Positions 3,035 to 36,355 of a DNA stretch of 36,355 nucleotides are shown here, piece after piece; positions within the stretch are counted from its first letter, which is position 1; each line of letters starts with the position of its first letter. The notes beneath the pieces were generated by a model. It made no database searches and was not told the DNA's origin. It worked only from the letters and a program-made list of their open reading frames with translations. Origin of the DNA: a virus; the IMG/VR virus record IMGVR_UViG_3300021399_000307, positions 1-36,355 of that record; one strand, given 5' to 3'. The position numbers and the translations under genes are program-made.

Positions 3035-3050
3035 TCTAAAACTCGATTTT
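3035..3050 (-). promoter_or_regulatory. Box B copy (minus strand AAAATCGAGTTTTAGA)
   Basis: One of four near-identical copies (3035, 14578, 20154, 23085). It lies just downstream of the ArdC terminator hairpin and upstream of the 2984 start. Confidence 0.4.
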
Positions 3051-4658: not shown

Positions 4659-5177
4659 TCAAAGATTCACCCTCAATCCTACGACAATTCCGACACCGGG
4701 GGTCACGTTGTCCATCCCGGGTTGCCAAAAGACACCCGGCCCGGCACTCACGCCCCAGCCTATCCGCTTCCATCTTTGGGGAGAAGGGACGGGGACTTGC
4801 TGTTGGATGGTTATTGTCTTGGGGAAAACTTCGACCCAATCTAAACAGGGTTCAATCCCCGACACTTGGGCCTTGTAATCTTCTCCTTCATAGCCCTTTA
4901 CCTCCCGCTCCATCGCCACATACAGGGTGTCTTTCAAACGGAGGGTATCGGTCACCTTAACCAACTGCACCCGGTCAACATACTTGGTCACAAAAACGGG
5001 CTTTTCAAGGCGGATTGTGTCGCGCCTAATAACTACTACCGAATCGGTCTTTGTGGCCGCAGAAACGAGTTTTAGAGCGTGTTTTCGGCCAAAGACGAAA
5101 CCAAGCGCAGCAAAGGATAACATAGCCACGCCTACCCCAACCCCGAACAGCCACGATGTCACTCTATCGTTATCCAT
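4659..5177 (-). CDS. N-terminally membrane-anchored protein, last gene of the lysis cluster
   Basis: Track ORF trimmed to MDNDRVTSWLFGVGVGVAMLSFAALGFVFG (ATG at 5177). It has one TM helix followed by a beta-rich domain. Confidence 0.55.
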   Translation of the reverse strand: MDNDRVTSWLFGVGVGVAMLSFAALGFVFGRKHALKLVSAATKTDSVVVIRRDTIRLEKPVFVTKYVDRVQLVKVTDTLRLKDTLYVAMEREVKGYEGEDYKAQVSGIEPCLDWVEVFPKTITIQQQVPVPSPQRWKRIGWGVSAGPGVFWQPGMDNVTPGVGIVVGLRVNL

Positions 5178-10780: not shown

Positions 10781-10859
10781 TTCCGTGAAATAGACTTGCC
10801 GCCGAATTTGTTATTTAGGCCGATTTGAGGGCCTTGAAGGCTTCCGGGGTATAATTTAT
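10781..10859 (-). promoter_or_regulatory. late upstream region: Box A (10781-10793), degenerate Box B, Box C (10830-10859)
   Basis: The minus strand reads ATAAATTATACCCCGGAAGCCTTCAAGGCC ... CTATTTCACGGAAAAGATATG. Box C matches 20172-20201 at 27 of 30 positions. Confidence 0.45.
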
Positions 10860-13028: not shown

Positions 13029-14516
13029 CTACTTGCTCATCAGTTCGGCCACGCGGTCAAGGCCCTTTGCCCCGGTCTTGCGGAAGGACTGCTCCTTCAC
13101 TTCTTCGTGGGCGGGCTTGGCGGCGGGCTGGGCTTTCAGTTCGGTCACCTGTGCCCGGAGGGATTCGACCTCGGCTTCGAGGGTAGCGGACTTGGCCTGT
13201 TCCTGCTGGACGGCTTCAACTCCGGCGTTGCGCACCTTTTCGAGGTCGGCTTCAAGGGCGGCGTTCTTTGCCCGGAGGGATTCGACCTCGGATTGTACCT
13301 TTGCGCCGAAGGCGGCGGAATCGTCGAAGTCCATAGGCACGAAAGCCTGCCGGCATTCCACACCCTCGCCGACATTTGCGCTGCCGTCCTCGTTCCAAGT
13401 CACGGCGTAGCGGTAGTACTTGTCGGAGTAGTCCTCGTCGTTCCACACATCGGCGACGGCGAAGTCATCCCCGGCGGAAACGATATACGCGCCCTCGTTG
13501 GGGGAAAGCCCGGCGTTGACGGCTTCGGAAATGCGGCGTGTCTTCTCCTCGTAGGACGCCTCGAACTTCTGCTTACGGGCGAGGTGTTCCGCCCGGCGGG
13601 CTTCCTGCTCCTCGCTGGGTTCGGGCGAAACCTCGGCTTCCGGGTCACGAATCTCCGAGACCTTGCCGTCCACGACCACGATGGTCTTGCCGTCCTCGGT
13701 CTTGTAGTCCCCGTCGGCGGCGGCTTCGAGGGTGTCATCCTCGGTGACGACCTCCACGGAATCACCTTCCTTCAAGTCCTCCTCGCCGGGCCATTCGATG
13801 ATGCCCTTGTCGGTGGTTACACGGCCAAACTTCTGCTCGGCCCTCTGCTCCGCTTCCAGCCGGGTGCGGAGAAGTTCTAAAATGCGTTCAATCTTTGCCA
13901 TAATCGTATTCTTGGTGTCTTTGTTTGCTGCTGAAAATTCCCCGGCCAGCCCGTCCACGATTTCGTCTATGTCCTGCTGGTTGGGTTCGGTGGCGAACCC
14001 GAAAACGCCTTCAAGGGAGAAGCCTTGATAAGTGCCGTCCTTGATTGCGGCCCACACGTCGTCATTGGTAACGTGGAACTCCGCGAACAGGGAGCCGTCC
14101 GCGATGTCGTCGAAGCCCTCGGGATTGATACCCTTTGCGGAATCCTTGATAAAGAACTGCACCATCTCCACGCCGTCTACCTCGTTGCCGTCGTGCATCG
14201 TGTCCACGTTGTTCTGCCGGGATTCGGCAAGGTACTTCTCTGCCATTTCCCGGATGGTGTCAGCCCGGTAGATGATATAATACTCGCCGCCCTTGTTATC
14301 CACTCGATAGATAGGGAAATCGGCCCGCATCACCACGCCCCGGACAAGTCTCTGTTCCTCGTCCTGCACGGCGTACATCTGTATCTTCTTGAAGGTCTGC
14401 CAGCCGGAGAGAACCGCCGGGGCATCCACAAGGGAAATCCGAATCATCCCGCACTCCTCGTCGGAGAGCAGGGCTTCGTATACGGGGATTCCGTCAATAG
14501 TAGAGGTCTTTGCCAT
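13029..14516 (-). CDS. prohead protease (XkdF-like N-domain) fused to a coiled-coil scaffolding domain
   Basis: Track ORF with its ATG at 14516 (the track start is TTG). The N-terminal ~190 aa (VQDEEQRLVRGVVMRADFPIYR, DTMHDGNEV, GFSLEG) resemble XkdF. The C-terminal half is E/A/K coiled coil. Confidence 0.6.
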   Translation of the reverse strand: MAKTSTIDGIPVYEALLSDEECGMIRISLVDAPAVLSGWQTFKKIQMYAVQDEEQRLVRGVVMRADFPIYRVDNKGGEYYIIYRADTIREMAEKYLAESRQNNVDTMHDGNEVDGVEMVQFFIKDSAKGINPEGFDDIADGSLFAEFHVTNDDVWAAIKDGTYQGFSLEGVFGFATEPNQQDIDEIVDGLAGEFSAANKDTKNTIMAKIERILELLRTRLEAEQRAEQKFGRVTTDKGIIEWPGEEDLKEGDSVEVVTEDDTLEAAADGDYKTEDGKTIVVVDGKVSEIRDPEAEVSPEPSEEQEARRAEHLARKQKFEASYEEKTRRISEAVNAGLSPNEGAYIVSAGDDFAVADVWNDEDYSDKYYRYAVTWNEDGSANVGEGVECRQAFVPMDFDDSAAFGAKVQSEVESLRAKNAALEADLEKVRNAGVEAVQQEQAKSATLEAEVESLRAQVTELKAQPAAKPAHEEVKEQSFRKTGAKGLDRVAELMSK

Positions 14517-14525
14517 CAATTCACT

Positions 14526-14592
14526 TTCCGTGAAATAGACAAAGACCCCTTTTTGTTAAAACGCCCCGTTTTTGCCGTCTAAAACTCCGTTT
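14526..14592 (-). promoter_or_regulatory. late upstream region: Box A (14526-14538) and Box B (14578-14592)
   Basis: The string tttgccgtctaaaactc at 14571-14587 is identical to 23078-23094. Box A lies 9 nt from the ATG at 14516. Confidence 0.45.
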
Positions 14593-20110: not shown

Positions 20111-20201
20111 TTCCGTGAAATAGAAAACGAGCGCAAATCGTTTCCGAATGCGCTCTAAAACTCGATTTCCCGGCCTTGAAAGGTTCGGGGGTATAATTTA
20201 T
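20111..20201 (-). promoter_or_regulatory. late upstream region: Box A (20111-20123), hairpin (20127-20153), Box B (20154-20168), Box C (20172-20201)
   Basis: The minus strand reads ATAAATTATACCCCCGAACCTTTCAAGGCCGGGAAATCGAGTTTTAGAGCGCA..TGCGCTC..TCTATTTCACGGAAAAGACTACGATATG. Confidence 0.5.
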
Positions 20202-22663: not shown

Positions 22664-23058
22664 TCGCCTTTCTTCCACTTATTGAAGGCTTCCTGCTCCT
22701 CCTTCGATACCAGCACCGGGACTTCCTTCGTGAACCCGATTTCGGACACCTGCTTCGGCTTCCCGAACAAGCGGTCAAGGATGTCACTTGTGTAGATGCC
22801 CGCCGTCTTACCCATCATCCCCTTCGCGTACACCTGAATCAAGTAACCGAACTCCGGGAGTTCCTCGGCGGTCTTGTTCAGGTACTCCGCTGCCGTCTTT
22901 TGGTCGGGCAGGGTCAACGCGTGGTACAGGGCCGCGTACACCTTCTCCCGGGCATCGGGCGGGATGGACTTTAACTTGGGCTTCCTGCCCGCCCCGGCTG
23001 GCTGATTCGTGGCCGAAAAGCGGTTGCCAATCTTGTTCCCTTTTTCAAATCGTCCCAT
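22660..23058 (-). CDS. putative terminase small subunit (DUF5681-like N-terminus)
   Basis: Track ORF of 132 aa. It has KGNKIGNRFSATNQPAGAGRKP at the N-terminus and lies directly upstream of and coupled to terL. Confidence 0.5.
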   Translation of the reverse strand: MGRFEKGNKIGNRFSATNQPAGAGRKPKLKSIPPDAREKVYAALYHALTLPDQKTAAEYLNKTAEELPEFGYLIQVYAKGMMGKTAGIYTSDILDRLFGKPKQVSEIGFTKEVPVLVSKEEQEAFNKWKKGE

Positions 23059-23077: not shown

Positions 23078-23099
23078 TTTGCCGTCTAAAACTCGATTT
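23078..23099 (-). promoter_or_regulatory. Box B copy upstream of the packaging genes
   Basis: The minus strand reads AAATCGAGTTTTAGACGGCAAA, 20 nt upstream of the ATG at 23058. Confidence 0.4.
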
Positions 23100-23107
23100 A
23101 CCGGGCC

Positions 23108-23487
23108 TTAAACCTTTTCCTTAATAAGTTCCCGGGCGGGCTGCAAAAACTCGTTCCTGGCGCTTATTTCCTCCTTAAAGATGCCCGTCAATTTACAGGT
23201 GCTCATCTTGCCCGGCTTTCTTGCTCCGCGCATTGTCTTGCAAAGGTGTTCCCCTTCCATTAGCAGGGCGATTCCAAGCGGCGGGTTTTCCGTACCCAGC
23301 ACCCCGGCGATGTCCTCCACGATGTCAGACACCAGCCGCTCTTGAATTTGCAGTTTGGCGGCATGATAGTCCACTACCCGGCCAATCTTGGATAGGCCGA
23401 GAATCTTTCCGTTCTCCCCTGCGAGATAAATTTCCTTTCATCGAATACATAGGGCCGGGAACTTGTCCCGGCGAGATAGAGATTCAT
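23108..23487 (-). pseudogene. folE: N-terminally truncated, frame-disrupted GTP cyclohydrolase I (FolE) fragment
   Basis: YLAGENGKILGLSKIGRVVDYHAAKLQIQERLVSDI...EGEHLCKTMRGARKPG...GIFKEE..R.EFL aligns with the C-terminal ~105 aa of FolE. The CEHH zinc motif is absent. The ATG at 23487 (ATGA with the ParB stop) is in another frame, 50 nt out of register. Confidence 0.7.
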
Positions 23488-25136: not shown

Positions 25137-25414
25137 ATCTCATAGATATAGTCCCACTTGTGATAGCCCCCGATAAGGGTCAGCCGCTTAATTTCCTTCT
25201 CGGGGATGAAGTAATCATTCTCGGCCTTCCCGAAGGCGTAGTTCAGAGTACCGAGTTTGTCCCGGTTCGTGGGTTCGATACAACCGGCATCCTGCTTTCG
25301 GGAAAGGACATAATCAATCAAGTCCCCGGTGGTGAATCCGGGTTTAAGGATTGCCCGGAGTTCGCACGTTCCGTCCCCAAATTCGCGGATATGTTCAACT
25401 TCAAATGGTCTCAT
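25133..25414 (-). CDS. hypothetical protein (93 aa)
   Basis: Track ORF. ATGA overlap with the sigma-4 ORF stop. Confidence 0.5.
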   Translation of the reverse strand: MRPFEVEHIREFGDGTCELRAILKPGFTTGDLIDYVLSRKQDAGCIEPTNRDKLGTLNYAFGKAENDYFIPEKEIKRLTLIGGYHKWDYIYEI

Positions 25415-25707
25415 AATCGTTCCTTAATTTCCTTTGCAGTCATTTCGTAGTATTCAGTAAGTATCTTCTCCTTGATTGGGTCAAGTACCCGCTTGACACT
25501 CCCGTAGGACATCCCCAATCTTTTCCCCAAATCCCGCAGACTTCCGCAGTCGGCGTACAGGAGGATAAGGGTGCGCTCCACTTGGTCAAGCCTGTTCAGC
25601 ACGATTTCCTTAATCCGTCGTACCTTGTCCGGCTCTGCGTTGAAGATAGAATCGTCTATCTCGAAGTCCTTGCGGATTTCCTTGTAGTCCCGTAGTACAT
25701 CATTCAT
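25411..25707 (-). CDS. sigma-70 region 4-like protein (second half of a split ECF-type sigma)
   Basis: Track ORF of 98 aa. LDQVERTLILLYADCGSLRDLGKRLGMSYGSVKRVLDPIKEKI matches the region 4.2 HTH pattern. Confidence 0.6.
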   Translation of the reverse strand: MNDVLRDYKEIRKDFEIDDSIFNAEPDKVRRIKEIVLNRLDQVERTLILLYADCGSLRDLGKRLGMSYGSVKRVLDPIKEKILTEYYEMTAKEIKERL

Positions 25708-26005
25708 CGGCGAAGTCTTTGTCCGTTATGTCGTCTGTCCGGGATGAGAATCGCCGGATGACGGCGTGGTAAGGGGAGCGCGGGGAGCGCAGTTGGTTAA
25801 CGATAACCCTTGCCAAGAAGAAGCGGATTTGCCCCGATTCCCAAAGGTCTATGATTTTGTCCTCATCGTATTCCAGCAGGATAAGGTAGACCATTTGGCA
25901 GAGGTCTTTGAGGTTCTGGGATAGGCGGGTATGGGCGATGTTGCAGACCATCTGCTCCACCACCCTGTCCCGAGCGAGTGCCGCGCCTATCTCCATCTTC
26001 GTCAT
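25700..26005 (-). CDS. sigma-70 region 2-like protein (first half of a split ECF-type sigma)
   Basis: Track ORF trimmed to MTKMEIG (ATG at 26005, 8 nt after the NinG stop). DLCQMVYLILLEYDEDKIIDLWESGQIRFFLARVIVNQLRSPRSPY fits regions 2.1-2.4. The stop overlaps the next ATG (ATGAATGA). Confidence 0.55.
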   Translation of the reverse strand: MTKMEIGAALARDRVVEQMVCNIAHTRLSQNLKDLCQMVYLILLEYDEDKIIDLWESGQIRFFLARVIVNQLRSPRSPYHAVIRRFSSRTDDITDKDFADE

Positions 26006-26012
26006 CTCGCTA

Positions 26013-27326
26013 TTAAATAGACTTTCCCTGCATCTTGTCAACTTCCTGCTGGTAGTGCTTGATAAGGAGTTGCAGTTCAAACGCGCTCCACTTCTTTGTC
26101 ATCCGTCCCCTTGCTAATAGCATATCCACGCGGTCTTTCCCGATTTTGGCTTCGAGGTTGCGCTGGTAGGCGATAATGTGGTCAGCGGAAAAGCGGTTGC
26201 AGTTGTGCATCATATACCCGTTTGCGATAAAAGTGTGGGTGCTGGTTTCCATTACCACAATCTCCTGTATTCCGGCGGGCGTAATTGATTTAACCTTCGT
26301 GTCGTACTTCGAGCGAATATCTCCAAGTTTATCTATGTCCAGTTTCTTTAATTTATGCGGGCGCAGTTTCATAAGAAATTGCACCTTTTCGATATTCGAC
26401 CCGGTTATAAGGAATTGCCACGTCTGTACCTTTGAATTTATCGCTCCGTTTCTCGGCTTTTCCATCCATTGGCGGCAGGGTTTATGATTTCCCGTAAAGC
26501 GTTCCATCCATTTCACGATGTCAGCGCAAATCTCCGGGTAGGTTTCGCTTTGAGCAATCCCAATACGAAGGCCATAGCGGATTGAACCGTCCGGGCCGTG
26601 GATATTCTGCTGGCAGAGGTGACCATCGGCATCAATCATTCCGGCAAGCCATCCGGCTTCGTAGGACTTCTCCTGCTGGTAGACCATTATCGGCTTACAT
26701 ACCATCGTGGTAGTTTTCTCGGTATGCGGCCCGGTCTTTTTCTTGCCGTGGAGGTTATACCCGTTTATCCACATTTCCTGCGTTTCCACCCAGCGCGTAC
26801 CACATCTTGACCGAACGAGCCATTTATGCTCGGCGGTGGTTTTGATATGGTCTCCGTTTTCAAGTTCTACATCATATACAGGGCTGGTGGCGCGATGTAT
26901 ATGGGTCACGATGCTTTTCTTCCAATGGCGGCGTTCTCCGTTCCGCCCGTGGCTTTCCTCGGTGAATCCAAACAACTCATCGCCTTCCTTTACATCCCCG
27001 AGAGGAATCCAGCGAAGGTCAGCGGTTAAGATAAGGGCATCCGGGGTAAGGCAAAACCTGCACTCCCCGTGTGCGTTTTCCTCATCGAACCGGGTGGCTT
27101 GGTGCGTCCGGGAAATGAAGTGCCCGCAGTCCATTTGCTCAAAGGGTTTGATTTGCCCGCAGGAGATACAACGGAAGTACTGGTAGTTGTACGCAGCCGA
27201 ATCCCGAAGCCGGATAAAAAGGGAGAAAACCTTATCCAATTTCCGCACAAGGGCGGCGGTACTGGGTTTCCTTTCCTTGATACCCGACTTCGGGGTTTTC
27301 GGTTTGCGCTTGATATAGTAGGGCAT
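26013..27326 (-). CDS. ninG: NinG/Rap-like recombination protein interrupted by an intein (437-aa precursor, 153-aa extein)
   Basis: KLDKVFSLFIRLRD, CISCG, DCGHFISR and RFDEENAHGECRF, then the insert, then CNRFSADHIIAYQRNLEAKIG. The ATG at 27326 overlaps the upstream stop (TAATG); the track start is further upstream. Confidence 0.8.
   Translation of the reverse strand: MPYYIKRKPKTPKSGIKERKPSTAALVRKLDKVFSLFIRLRDSAAYNYQYFRCISCGQIKPFEQMDCGHFISRTHQATRFDEENAHGECRFCLTPDALILTADLRWIPLGDVKEGDELFGFTEESHGRNGERRHWKKSIVTHIHRATSPVYDVELENGDHIKTTAEHKWLVRSRCGTRWVETQEMWINGYNLHGKKKTGPHTEKTTTMVCKPIMVYQQEKSYEAGWLAGMIDADGHLCQQNIHGPDGSIRYGLRIGIAQSETYPEICADIVKWMERFTGNHKPCRQWMEKPRNGAINSKVQTWQFLITGSNIEKVQFLMKLRPHKLKKLDIDKLGDIRSKYDTKVKSITPAGIQEIVVMETSTHTFIANGYMMHNCNRFSADHIIAYQRNLEAKIGKDRVDMLLARGRMTKKWSAFELQLLIKHYQQEVDKMQGKSI
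26202..27053 (-). mobile_element. class-1 intein with LAGLIDADG homing-endonuclease domain (284 aa)
   Basis: It begins CLTPDALILTADL, has IKTTAEH and GWLAGMIDADGHL, and ends THTFIANGYMMHN followed by Cys+1. The insert is in frame and no stop interrupts it. Confidence 0.8.
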
Positions 27327-27592
27327 TATTCCTCGTTCTCTGCCGTCTGCTTTTCGTTTTCCGAGGCTTGTTCGGCAATCGGGAATAGTTTCTCCATCAT
27401 CAGGTCTGCGGCCTTCATAGACCATTCTACGGCCTGTTCCGCGGTCATCCCGAGGTTGGGGTTGTGTACCAGCCCGAACAGGATGGAGGTTGCGTACTGC
27501 TCCCGCTTTTGGGAGAGGAAACGGAGGATTTGGTTTTTCTTTTCCTCCGGGGTGAGGGGCTTCGGCCCGCTCGGCTTCATAGATTTGTTCAT
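27326..27592 (-). CDS. hypothetical protein (88 aa)
   Basis: Track ORF with an acidic C-terminus, coupled to ninG. Confidence 0.5.
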   Translation of the reverse strand: MNKSMKPSGPKPLTPEEKKNQILRFLSQKREQYATSILFGLVHNPNLGMTAEQAVEWSMKAADLMMEKLFPIAEQASENEKQTAENEE

Positions 27593-32456: not shown

Positions 32457-32487
32457 CAAATATAATTATATTATTTGGAAATCCAAA
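32457..32487 (-). promoter_or_regulatory. early leftward promoter (TTTG-N19-TATATTTG)
   Basis: The -7 box is at 32464-32457 and TTTG at 32487-32484, with a 19-nt spacer. It lies in the 129-nt divergent region facing the repressor gene. Confidence 0.6.
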
Positions 32488-36069: not shown

Positions 36070-36355
36070 TTTCTTGCATAGGCCATATTTTCGGGATGAG
36101 TAACTACTTCCTTCTTCCCATCTTCAAACGCTTCGTTTATGTTTTTGAATTCTGATTGAAGTTCGCTCCACTCTGCGGGCTTCTGCTCTTTCTGCTTATT
36201 ACAGCTATAAAGTTCAATTTTCTTAAAATCATCCCAAGTTAGTTTTGCATATCTCTTTCCATTTTCAACCTTAGCGTGAGATGCAAATTGGACTTGGATT
36301 GCTGAAAGCAAATGTTCATTATCAAGAACTTGATGATTTGCTCCAAGATGGTATC
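36018..36355 (-). CDS. modular accessory protein, 3' part in the frame continuous with 94..839 (5' end runs off the right edge)
   Basis: Track ORF 36018..36311, and the frame is open to 36355. The offset of 36135 nt to the left copy is divisible by 3, so the frame matches 1..839. Confidence 0.6.
   Translation of the reverse strand, partial: YHLGANHQVLDNEHLLSAIQVQFASHAKVENGKRYAKLTWDDFKKIELYSCNKQKEQKPAEWSELQSEFKNINEAFEDGKKEVVTHPENMAYARKQSGARRMRTNWSSVSK
36229..36355. repeat. 127-nt exact copy of 94..220 (circular closure overlap)
   Basis: See feature 94..220. Confidence 0.95.

Follow-up and report, generated by a model that had tools for sequence, protein, structure and literature searches.

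Two overlapping phage genes that probably encode the sigma-2 half and the sigma-4 half of an ECF-type sigma factor

Organization of the locus

The stretch of DNA analyzed here, called the window throughout, is the complete 36,355-nucleotide (nt) viral record IMGVR_UViG_3300021399_000307 of IMG/VR (positions 1 to 36,355). Between positions 25411 and 26005 of its minus strand lie two overlapping open reading frames (ORFs), the N-ORF and the C-ORF, which we propose to be the two halves of a single extracytoplasmic function (ECF) sigma factor; features are on the minus strand unless stated otherwise. The N-ORF (25700–26005) runs from an ATG at 26005 to a TGA at 25702–25700 and encodes 101 amino acids (aa), MTKMEIGAAL...DKDFADE, whereas the C-ORF (25411–25707) runs from an ATG at 25707 to 25411 and encodes 98 aa with the head peptide MNDVLRDYK. 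The two share an 8-nt stop/start overlap, ATGAATGA (25700–25707), in which the C-ORF takes the +1 frame relative to the N-ORF. Both ORFs and their overlap had been described in a first note made from the sequence of the window alone (the original prediction), and our reading of the sequence and the ORF list agree with it. A longer N-ORF could start at an upstream TTG at 26080; we preferred the ATG at 26005, because homologues begin at the equivalent Met (M-x-K-x-E-I).

The N-ORF product appears to be a stand-alone sigma-2-like polypeptide (regions 2.1–2.4) followed by a short variable tail. Its conserved core, aa 30–81 (DLCQMVYLILLEY...FFLARVIVNQLRS; 25763–25918), is followed by tail residues 82–101 (25703–25762), in which a still-conserved SPFHxxFRKF stretch gives way to a part whose length and sequence vary among relatives; the last ∼12–15 residues are non-conserved and were modeled with low confidence by AlphaFold2 (AF2). 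Judged from this variation and from the model, the tail may be the N-half remnant of a former sigma-2/sigma-4 linker. The C-ORF product consists of a conserved head of 25 residues (25633–25707), probably also derived from the linker, and a predicted sigma-4 domain with the region 4.1/4.2 helix-turn-helix (HTH), whose core spans aa 26–88 (25444–25632).

Domain identity of the two products

The C-ORF can be compared with sigma region 4 directly. It matched Pfam Sigma70_r4 with E=4e-5 and 23.5 bits (cut-off, 24.1), Sigma70_r4_2 with E=3e-4 and 20.8 bits, the C-terminal third of the TIGR02937 sigma70-ECF model with E=4.5e-5, and phrog_1740, annotated as "RNA polymerase sigma factor," with E=4.8e-6. 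Precomputed annotations of close C-ORF homologues include PF04545 and PF08281. A profile of the C-half family retrieved the SigW sigma-4 structure from the PDB (entry 6jhe, E=0.0036), and hhalign aligned this family with the C-terminal domain of a family of fused, single-chain relatives (probability 92%, E=6.6e-7), placing C-ORF aa 26–88 on fused aa 107–169. Together, these data are borderline but consistent, and they suggest that the C-ORF encodes a sigma region-4 domain.

The identity of the N-ORF is transitive, passing through fused single-chain relatives that match the curated ECF model. The N-half family aligned with the single-chain family (170–178 aa) at 99% and E=5e-18 in hhalign, with N-ORF aa 30–81 on fused aa 28–79. 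The single-chain family in turn matched TIGR02937 across the whole protein (E=9.7e-10, 38.3 bits; aa 6–165 on model positions 5–163 of 165) and Pfam Sigma70_r2 with E=0.0024 in the same block that corresponds to N-ORF aa 30–81, and in the PDB it retrieved the sigma-2 domains of SigR (1h3l, E=0.0034), SigH, and SigE. Some of its members (P0101–P0117) are labeled "RNA polymerase sigma factor (sigma-70 family)" by JGI. The N-half profile also matched aa 1–100 of the natural single-chain protein P0159 with E=7.5e-26, and P0159 passes the curated TIGR02937 cut-off (43.2 versus 42.9 bits, aa 15–184). The sigma-2 core motifs (DLxQxxY... and F/WxxARxxxNQ) are retained in the N-half. With the two window ORFs joined, TIGR02937 gave 31.4 bits where it had given 23.1, and model positions 12–163 of 165 were covered. 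This homology, transitive but strong, suggests that the N-ORF encodes a sigma-2 domain; the N-half has diverged past direct recognition by Sigma70_r2. The original prediction had named sigma-2 and sigma-4 halves from motifs; in direct searches region 4 is borderline, and region 2 is reached through the fused relatives. A weak match to ArlX in 44 of 49 members of the N-half family was judged spurious.

AF2 predicted a helical bundle for the N-half alone, with a mean predicted local distance difference test (pLDDT) score of 83.8. For the concatenated halves, the model reached a pLDDT of 88.8 and a predicted template modeling score (pTM) of 0.51 and contained two confident domains, with a segment of low confidence between them (aa 85–110). 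Disorder was confined to this junction, with a pLDDT of about 50–60 over about aa 81–110, and the C-head (aa 111–130) was at or above 90. The models therefore support two folded domains.

Split and fused relatives

When IMG/VR was scanned with the N-half family, in a survey of the kind that the original prediction had proposed, 37 related split-type loci came up, and in all 37 the two halves are adjacent ORFs in different frames. The C-half lies in the +1 frame relative to the N-half at 21 loci and in the −1 frame at 16, and every C-half starts with an ATG of its own, which sits at the N stop or shortly ahead of it. The junctions themselves differ: 4-nt ATGA overlaps occur at 14 loci, 8-nt overlaps at six, 11-nt overlaps at seven, overlaps of 16–23 nt at five, and overlaps of 44–65 nt at three, and at two loci the ORFs are separated by a gap of 1–2 nt.

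Proteins of half size also dominate the wider family. All homologues from two protein searches (100 of 100 and 118 of 118) span 89–143 aa. In an exhaustive HMMER search at E≤1e-3, the N-half profile matched at least 1287 clusters at 50% identity, almost all of them stand-alone; among the best 150 of the 1287, 145 are at most 133 aa long. Both halves are intact and conserved at 40–60% identity across hundreds of clusters. The pair of the window itself recurs in independent assemblies. JGI, ENA, and Logan contribute 32 contigs with the exact C-ORF, and ∼30 near-identical variants are all 98–100 aa long; the 90% cluster of the N-ORF has 39 members of 98–104 aa on many contigs, and the loci L004 and L005, from two IMG samples, reproduce the junction of the window.

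Fused forms are rare. The same IMG/VR scan contained seven loci (L038–L044) with a single ORF of ∼170 aa, and in four proteins among the HMMER matches an N-half and a C-half are joined in frame: P0121 (210 aa), P0130 (226 aa), P0159 (192 aa), and P0254 (219 aa). Three contigs, which come from two or more sequencing runs, carry P0121, and there it takes the genomic place of the split pair. Two of its loci, L136 (3001–3633) and L137 (1318–1950), from Logan SRR14298102 and SRR14298101, belong to a related phage, and this natural fusion is a useful comparison partner. In a rough neighbor-joining tree of sigma-2 domains, built without bootstrap, the 170-aa fused family and P0254 lie near the base, and P0121 and P0130 are nested among split forms. 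This topology is only suggestive of a fused ancestral gene, one old fission, and occasional re-fusions.

Because all 37 relatives are split, with differing frames and junction sequences, the comparisons indicate that the split is real, ancient, and common to a large gut/rumen phage family. The variety of junctions implies two separately initiated, probably coupled translations, and it speaks against an assembly error, a pseudogene, or conserved recoding.

In one relative, L025 (675–1514 of IMGVR_UViG_3300033463_004921), the reading frame of the sigma-4 half extends into a domain resembling HNH-type homing endonucleases, so that the ORF comes to 280 aa (...WKPIPGYDCYEVSDQGDVRSL...HRLVAAAF...); a mobile endonuclease seems to have been inserted immediately after the gene. 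A search of phage GenBank entries with the region found essentially no relatives, and in the searchable open-access literature we found no description of a natural split phage ECF-type sigma or of the present phage family.

The direct repeat at the junction

The original prediction had drawn attention to a direct repeat flanking the junction. Its upstream copy, CAAAGACTTCG (25711–25721), lies in the non-conserved N-tail, and its downstream copy, CAAGGACTTCG (25662–25672), lies in the conserved C-head motif. The copies agree at 10 of 11 positions, which makes the repeat slightly longer than first described; they are 49 nt apart, and both are read K-D-F. Deletion of the 49 nt does give an in-frame product of 181 aa, as had been predicted.

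We evaluated how readily such a repeat arises. A frame-restoring repeat matching at 9 of 10 positions was found in 5.3% of shuffled sequences within ±80 nt of the junction and in 14% at any distance. Among the relatives, some such repeat is present in 8 of 29 distinct sequences, at unrelated positions and distances of 13–140 nt, and we found no conserved bypass or insertion repeat geometry among them. Since one copy sits in a conserved motif and the other in a non-conserved tail, a chance match is the simplest account, and the repeat is probably no more than that.

The 49 nt cover the last codons of the N-tail and codons 1–15 of the C-ORF (MNDVLRDYKEIRKDF), so that most of the segment, together with the downstream repeat copy, falls within the C-head. 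The C-head motif, with the consensus VxEYKxIRxDYxFDPxIF or, in a second rendering, VVKEFRQIKxEYxFDPxIF, is conserved in every C-half and is also contained in the single chain of P0121, where C-ORF aa 2–85 align with aa 122–205 (40% identity, E=2e-21). Because the motif is conserved and lies inside a natural fused chain, the segment appears to be ancestral coding sequence and no insert. The natural fusions, at 192–226 aa, are N- and C-halves joined end to end and differ from the 181-aa product. We also considered whether the N-tail and the C-head are duplicated copies of one linker; this idea was rejected, as a C-head hidden Markov model (HMM) scored N-tails no better than shuffled tails.

Genomic context and candidate late promoters

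The pair belongs to the end of the early/middle operon, with the packaging and structural genes following shortly downstream, and in relatives the split pair likewise lies ahead of GP3_package and terminase genes. The next three junctions of the same operon are ATGA-type overlaps as well (25414/25411, 25136/25133, and 24825/24822); such overlaps are thus a general style of the operon, and the one within the sigma pair is not peculiar. Downstream of the pair, five small ORFs are followed by a terminator-like hairpin (23454–23472), with a 7-bp stem containing six GC pairs and a weak T tract, that would close the operon. A non-coding stretch of ∼350 nt separates the hairpin from the first of a series of repeated boxes, and the large terminase gene lies at 22678–21449.

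The box, AAATCGAGTTTTAGA, is present in exact form at 23085–23099, 27 nt before the start codon (ATG) of the ORF that opens the packaging operon, a putative small terminase by position that matched no family. A second exact copy at 20154–20168 is followed by TCTATTTCACGGAAAAGA and an ATG, a third at 14578–14592 has two mismatches, a fourth at 3035–3049 is exact, and a further weak likeness is found near 10805–10847. With up to three mismatches allowed, the window contains five matches (four minus-strand and one plus-strand, the latter at 5062–5076) against 0.92 expected, and none of 100 shuffles reached five. The box can be extended to (TTnAAGG-N6)-AAATCGAGTTTTAGA, and at three sites TCTATTTCACGGAAAAGA and a start codon follow ∼35 nt later. 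In the relative L144, whose C-half is 64% identical, the box and TCTATTTCACGGAAAAGA occur exactly, at 13118 and 13161 (13118–13175). Neither was found in the relative L145, and the 5-kb relative loci are too short to reach the late region. Exact searches across IMG/VR gave, besides the contig of the window, only scattered single matches that are presumably due to chance, and an Rfam scan of the window returned nothing. The box could be a late promoter, a leader, or another regulatory site for the sigma pair.

Primary sigma factors of Bacteroidota recognize promoters with the consensus TTTG-N17–21-TAnnTTTG. The coding strand of the window holds four such matches (32487–32457, 11373–11343, 4663–4633, and 4393–4363) against 0.30 expected, and none of 100 shuffles reached four, which suggests a Bacteroidota host. 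According to the original prediction, host-type promoters are missing from the late operons; this is only partly true, as three of the four matches lie inside the structural region. A search of GTDB genomes for the host gave six hits, all on contigs of metagenome-assembled genomes whose taxonomy is mutually inconsistent and which are probably phage contigs binned wrongly; the search revealed no prophage integrated in a reliable genome.

Several other features of these genomes were recorded. The gene directly upstream of the pair (26013–27425) belongs to the lambda NinG family (PF05766, E=3.3e-18) and is interrupted by an intein of ∼280 aa that starts with CLTPDALIL..., contains the LAGLIDADG-type motif LAGMIDADGHL, ends in ...YMMHN before a C, and matches Pfam Intein_splicing with E=1.6e-6, below the cut-off. 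The relative L145 (1–1853 and 6667–7386) carries a split sigma together with an integrase and an S24-peptidase repressor, from which we take the family to be temperate, at least one relative having both; it also encodes a pentapeptide-repeat protein, in an array of 15-nt tandem repeats. Finally, the end of the window (36168–36355) repeats its start (27–220), with 140 nt at 99% and 50 nt at 92% identity. The window is therefore slightly longer than one genome length (∼36.1 kb), as in a circular or terminally redundant assembly, and the small differences between the repeated ends suggest a mixed population.

Discussion

Our data establish the two ORFs, their conserved split pairing, their homology to single-chain ECF-like sigma factors, and their genomic position. 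On this basis we consider it probable that the two ORFs divide a single ECF-type (group IV-like) sigma between them and that their products cooperate as a sigma factor; we give about an even chance to the late operons being its targets. Separate but coupled translation, assembly with RNA polymerase, sigma activity, late-gene specificity, and the assignment of promoters are what we infer from these observations. In the mechanism we propose, the gene would have been severed within the long disordered sigma-2/sigma-4 linker in an ancestral member of a large phage family. Near 32.5 kb (32457–32487), ∼6.5 kb upstream of the pair, lies a host-sigma promoter match that would drive the early/middle block, as its position and strand suggest. 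The stop/start overlap would keep the halves co-transcribed and probably translationally coupled, so that they are made together. The N-ORF product would act as sigma-2, binding the β′ clamp helices of RNA polymerase and recognizing and melting the −10 element; the C-ORF product would act as sigma-4, binding the β flap and recognizing the −35 element, with the conserved 25-residue head from the old inter-domain linker before it. Both halves would load on the core RNA polymerase of the host and jointly switch it to phage late promoters, for which the repeated boxes are candidates.

Several results weigh against this proposal. The N-ORF gave no match in Pfam, PHROG, or NCBIfam searches, and Sigma70_r2 was absent even at E≤10; this was the direct HMM comparison that the original prediction had suggested, and taken alone it speaks against a sigma-2 domain. 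Only 2 of the 49 members of the N-half family reached Sigma70_r2 at E≤0.1, and a PDB sequence profile search with this family returned no matches. The Sigma70_r4 score of the C-ORF falls slightly below the Pfam cut-off. Foldseek found nothing significant for the N-half model (best E=7.6, with SigW third) or for the model of the concatenated halves (best E=0.2); the PDB top list of the latter consists almost entirely of sigma factors, mostly ECF, with ∼190 aligned columns (SigB, SigW, SigL, SigE, SigH, RpoE, CnrH, sigma-E, and AlgU). Stop/start overlaps are common throughout the operon, and coupling is thus no specific evidence of partnership. The repeated box has no clear −35/−10 architecture, and among the relatives examined over a longer range it occurs in L144 only. 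That the proteins would bind RNA polymerase, recognize particular promoters, and both be required is inferred.

The most serious alternative, which we nevertheless regard as unlikely, is that the two proteins descend from a sigma factor and now have independent functions, with the C-ORF product an HTH activator or repressor and the N-ORF product a modulator of RNA polymerase or a sigma-2 decoy directed against the host sigma. The C-ORF also scores with HTH_50, HTH_58, DUF2089, and TyrR-type HTH models, the divergence of the N-ORF from Sigma70_r2 would fit a changed role, and intein ligation has been used to turn synthetic split ECF sigmas back into a single chain (PMC7090010), which agrees with the idea that an intact linker may matter. 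Against this stand the strict adjacency and the close stop/start arrangement at all 37 loci, the repeated occurrence of the two halves as one polypeptide (a Rosetta-stone argument), the retention of the sigma-2 core motifs, and the example of Bacillus subtilis SigO–RsoA, which shows that a split sigma is workable (PMC8103513 and PMC7826278). An error of assembly or sequencing, or a dead sigma pseudogene, could be imagined because one frame change separates the ORFs. The original prediction had named the former as a possible refutation, but the same ORFs were assembled independently on at least 32 contigs (JGI, ENA, and Logan) and both halves are widely intact and conserved, which leaves this explanation a negligible probability.

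Two further explanations build on the direct repeat. The original prediction saw a recent gene fission caused by a 49-nt insertion between AA[A/G]GACTTCG repeats, with the 181-aa deletion product as the ancestor. The repeat exists, its removal restores the frame with K-D-F in both ORFs, and the linker of the resulting product, ∼28 aa, is near the 27 aa of the 170-aa fused family. However, the supposed insert is the C-head motif, which is present in all C-halves and at aa 122–135 of the natural fusion P0121, all 37 relatives are split through other junction sequences and with both frame offsets, the natural fusions are longer than 181 aa, and a comparable repeat arises by chance in 5–14% of shuffles and lacks a conserved counterpart. 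We therefore judge a recent insertion to be highly improbable. Recoding would instead yield a single-chain sigma, alone or beside the halves, by a +1 frameshift or by a bypass from the first K-D-F to the second, like that of T4 gene 60, where 50 nt are bypassed; the product would carry the junction ...DITDKDFEIDDSIF.... Such a bypass could use the two repeat copies as matched take-off and landing sites; they are separated by 49 nt, and a stop codon follows the first by three codons. Yet the relatives would need a +1 shift at 21 loci and a −1 shift at 16, their overlaps range from 4 to 65 nt with gaps at two loci, and neither a slippery site nor a pair of matched codons is conserved among them. 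Each C-half moreover has its own ATG at the N stop, and a bypass would skip the conserved motif. Recoding is thus very unlikely in our assessment.

Returning to the proposal of two cooperating sigma halves, a stronger form of it can be put forward tentatively, with a likelihood that we place just short of even: that gut/rumen temperate phages, probably infecting Bacteroidota, use an obligate two-subunit ECF-type sigma in which the C-head replaces the covalent linker, and that they have switched between split and fused forms more than once. The C-head motif would then serve as a docking element or a "sigma finger." In an ECF holoenzyme, the sigma-2/sigma-4 linker passes through RNA polymerase by way of its active-site cleft and RNA exit channel, and it is considered important for initiation and promoter escape. 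If the proposal is true, the phage family is a natural experiment on the purpose of this linker, and its fused and split members, side by side, offer a comparative system for how and why a phage sigma works in two pieces. The N-half family, with at least 1287 clusters, all unannotated and absent from Pfam and PHROGs, could now be annotated as a sigma-2 subunit, which affects how late-gene regulation is read in many gut/rumen phage genomes.

Comparison with known systems

Single-chain ECF (group IV) sigmas, including those of phages (TIGR02937 and phrog_1740), have the same two domains, a sigma-2 and a sigma-4, and, likewise, no sigma-1.1 or sigma-3. Unlike them, the phage pair carries these domains on two polypeptides, its linker region totals ∼45 aa in contrast to ∼27 aa in the 170-aa family, and this region holds a conserved motif. 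In Bacillus phage SPO1, two polypeptides, gp33 and gp34, are both needed to direct the host core RNA polymerase to late promoters, and the phage pair is reminiscent of them. The slot of the phage pair, after a NinG homologue and before a terminator-like hairpin and the packaging and structural genes, is the one in which lambdoid phages keep their late-gene regulator.

The original prediction had likened the pair to T4 gp55/gp33, which have been called a "split sigma factor" (PMC12867686 and PMC13627669). The likeness lies in two small phage proteins that replace the host sigma for late genes, gp55 doing the sigma-2 job and gp33 binding the β flap in the manner of sigma-4. The analogy is loose, as gp33 lacks a DNA-binding region 4 and reads no −35 element, T4 late promoters consist of a −10 element only, and the gp45 sliding clamp is needed. 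In contrast, the C-ORF keeps a region-4 HTH, and both halves of the phage pair are homologous to single-chain ECF sigmas. No match to the gp55 or gp33 families appeared in the Pfam and PHROG scans of the ORF pair.

The closer precedent, and the closest functional one that we can offer, is SigO–RsoA (YvrI–YvrHa) of B. subtilis; the likeness is one of working, and we claim no membership. Its sigma-4 domain and its sigma-2 domain reside on separate proteins encoded by adjacent, co-transcribed genes, which jointly activate transcription (PMC8103513 and PMC7826278, the latter citing MacLellan 2009). In PMC7826278, a re-classification of ECF sigmas, the authors recognized that phage ECFs and split ECFs had both escaped the census. 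The phage pair likewise appears to place a sigma-2-like and a sigma-4-like domain on separate polypeptides from adjacent genes. NCBIfam scans gave no match named SigO or RsoA; the likeness is functional, and the SigO and RsoA sequences themselves were not compared. SigO–RsoA is cellular and has the gene order yvrI–yvrHa, with sigma-4 first, whereas the phage order is sigma-2 and then sigma-4, collinear with an intact ECF gene. If our proposal is correct, the phage pair would be only the second natural bona fide split factor of the sigma-70 family with a DNA-reading sigma-4, after SigO–RsoA, and, unlike SigO–RsoA, it belongs to a family whose natural fused members reveal the fission point in the linker.

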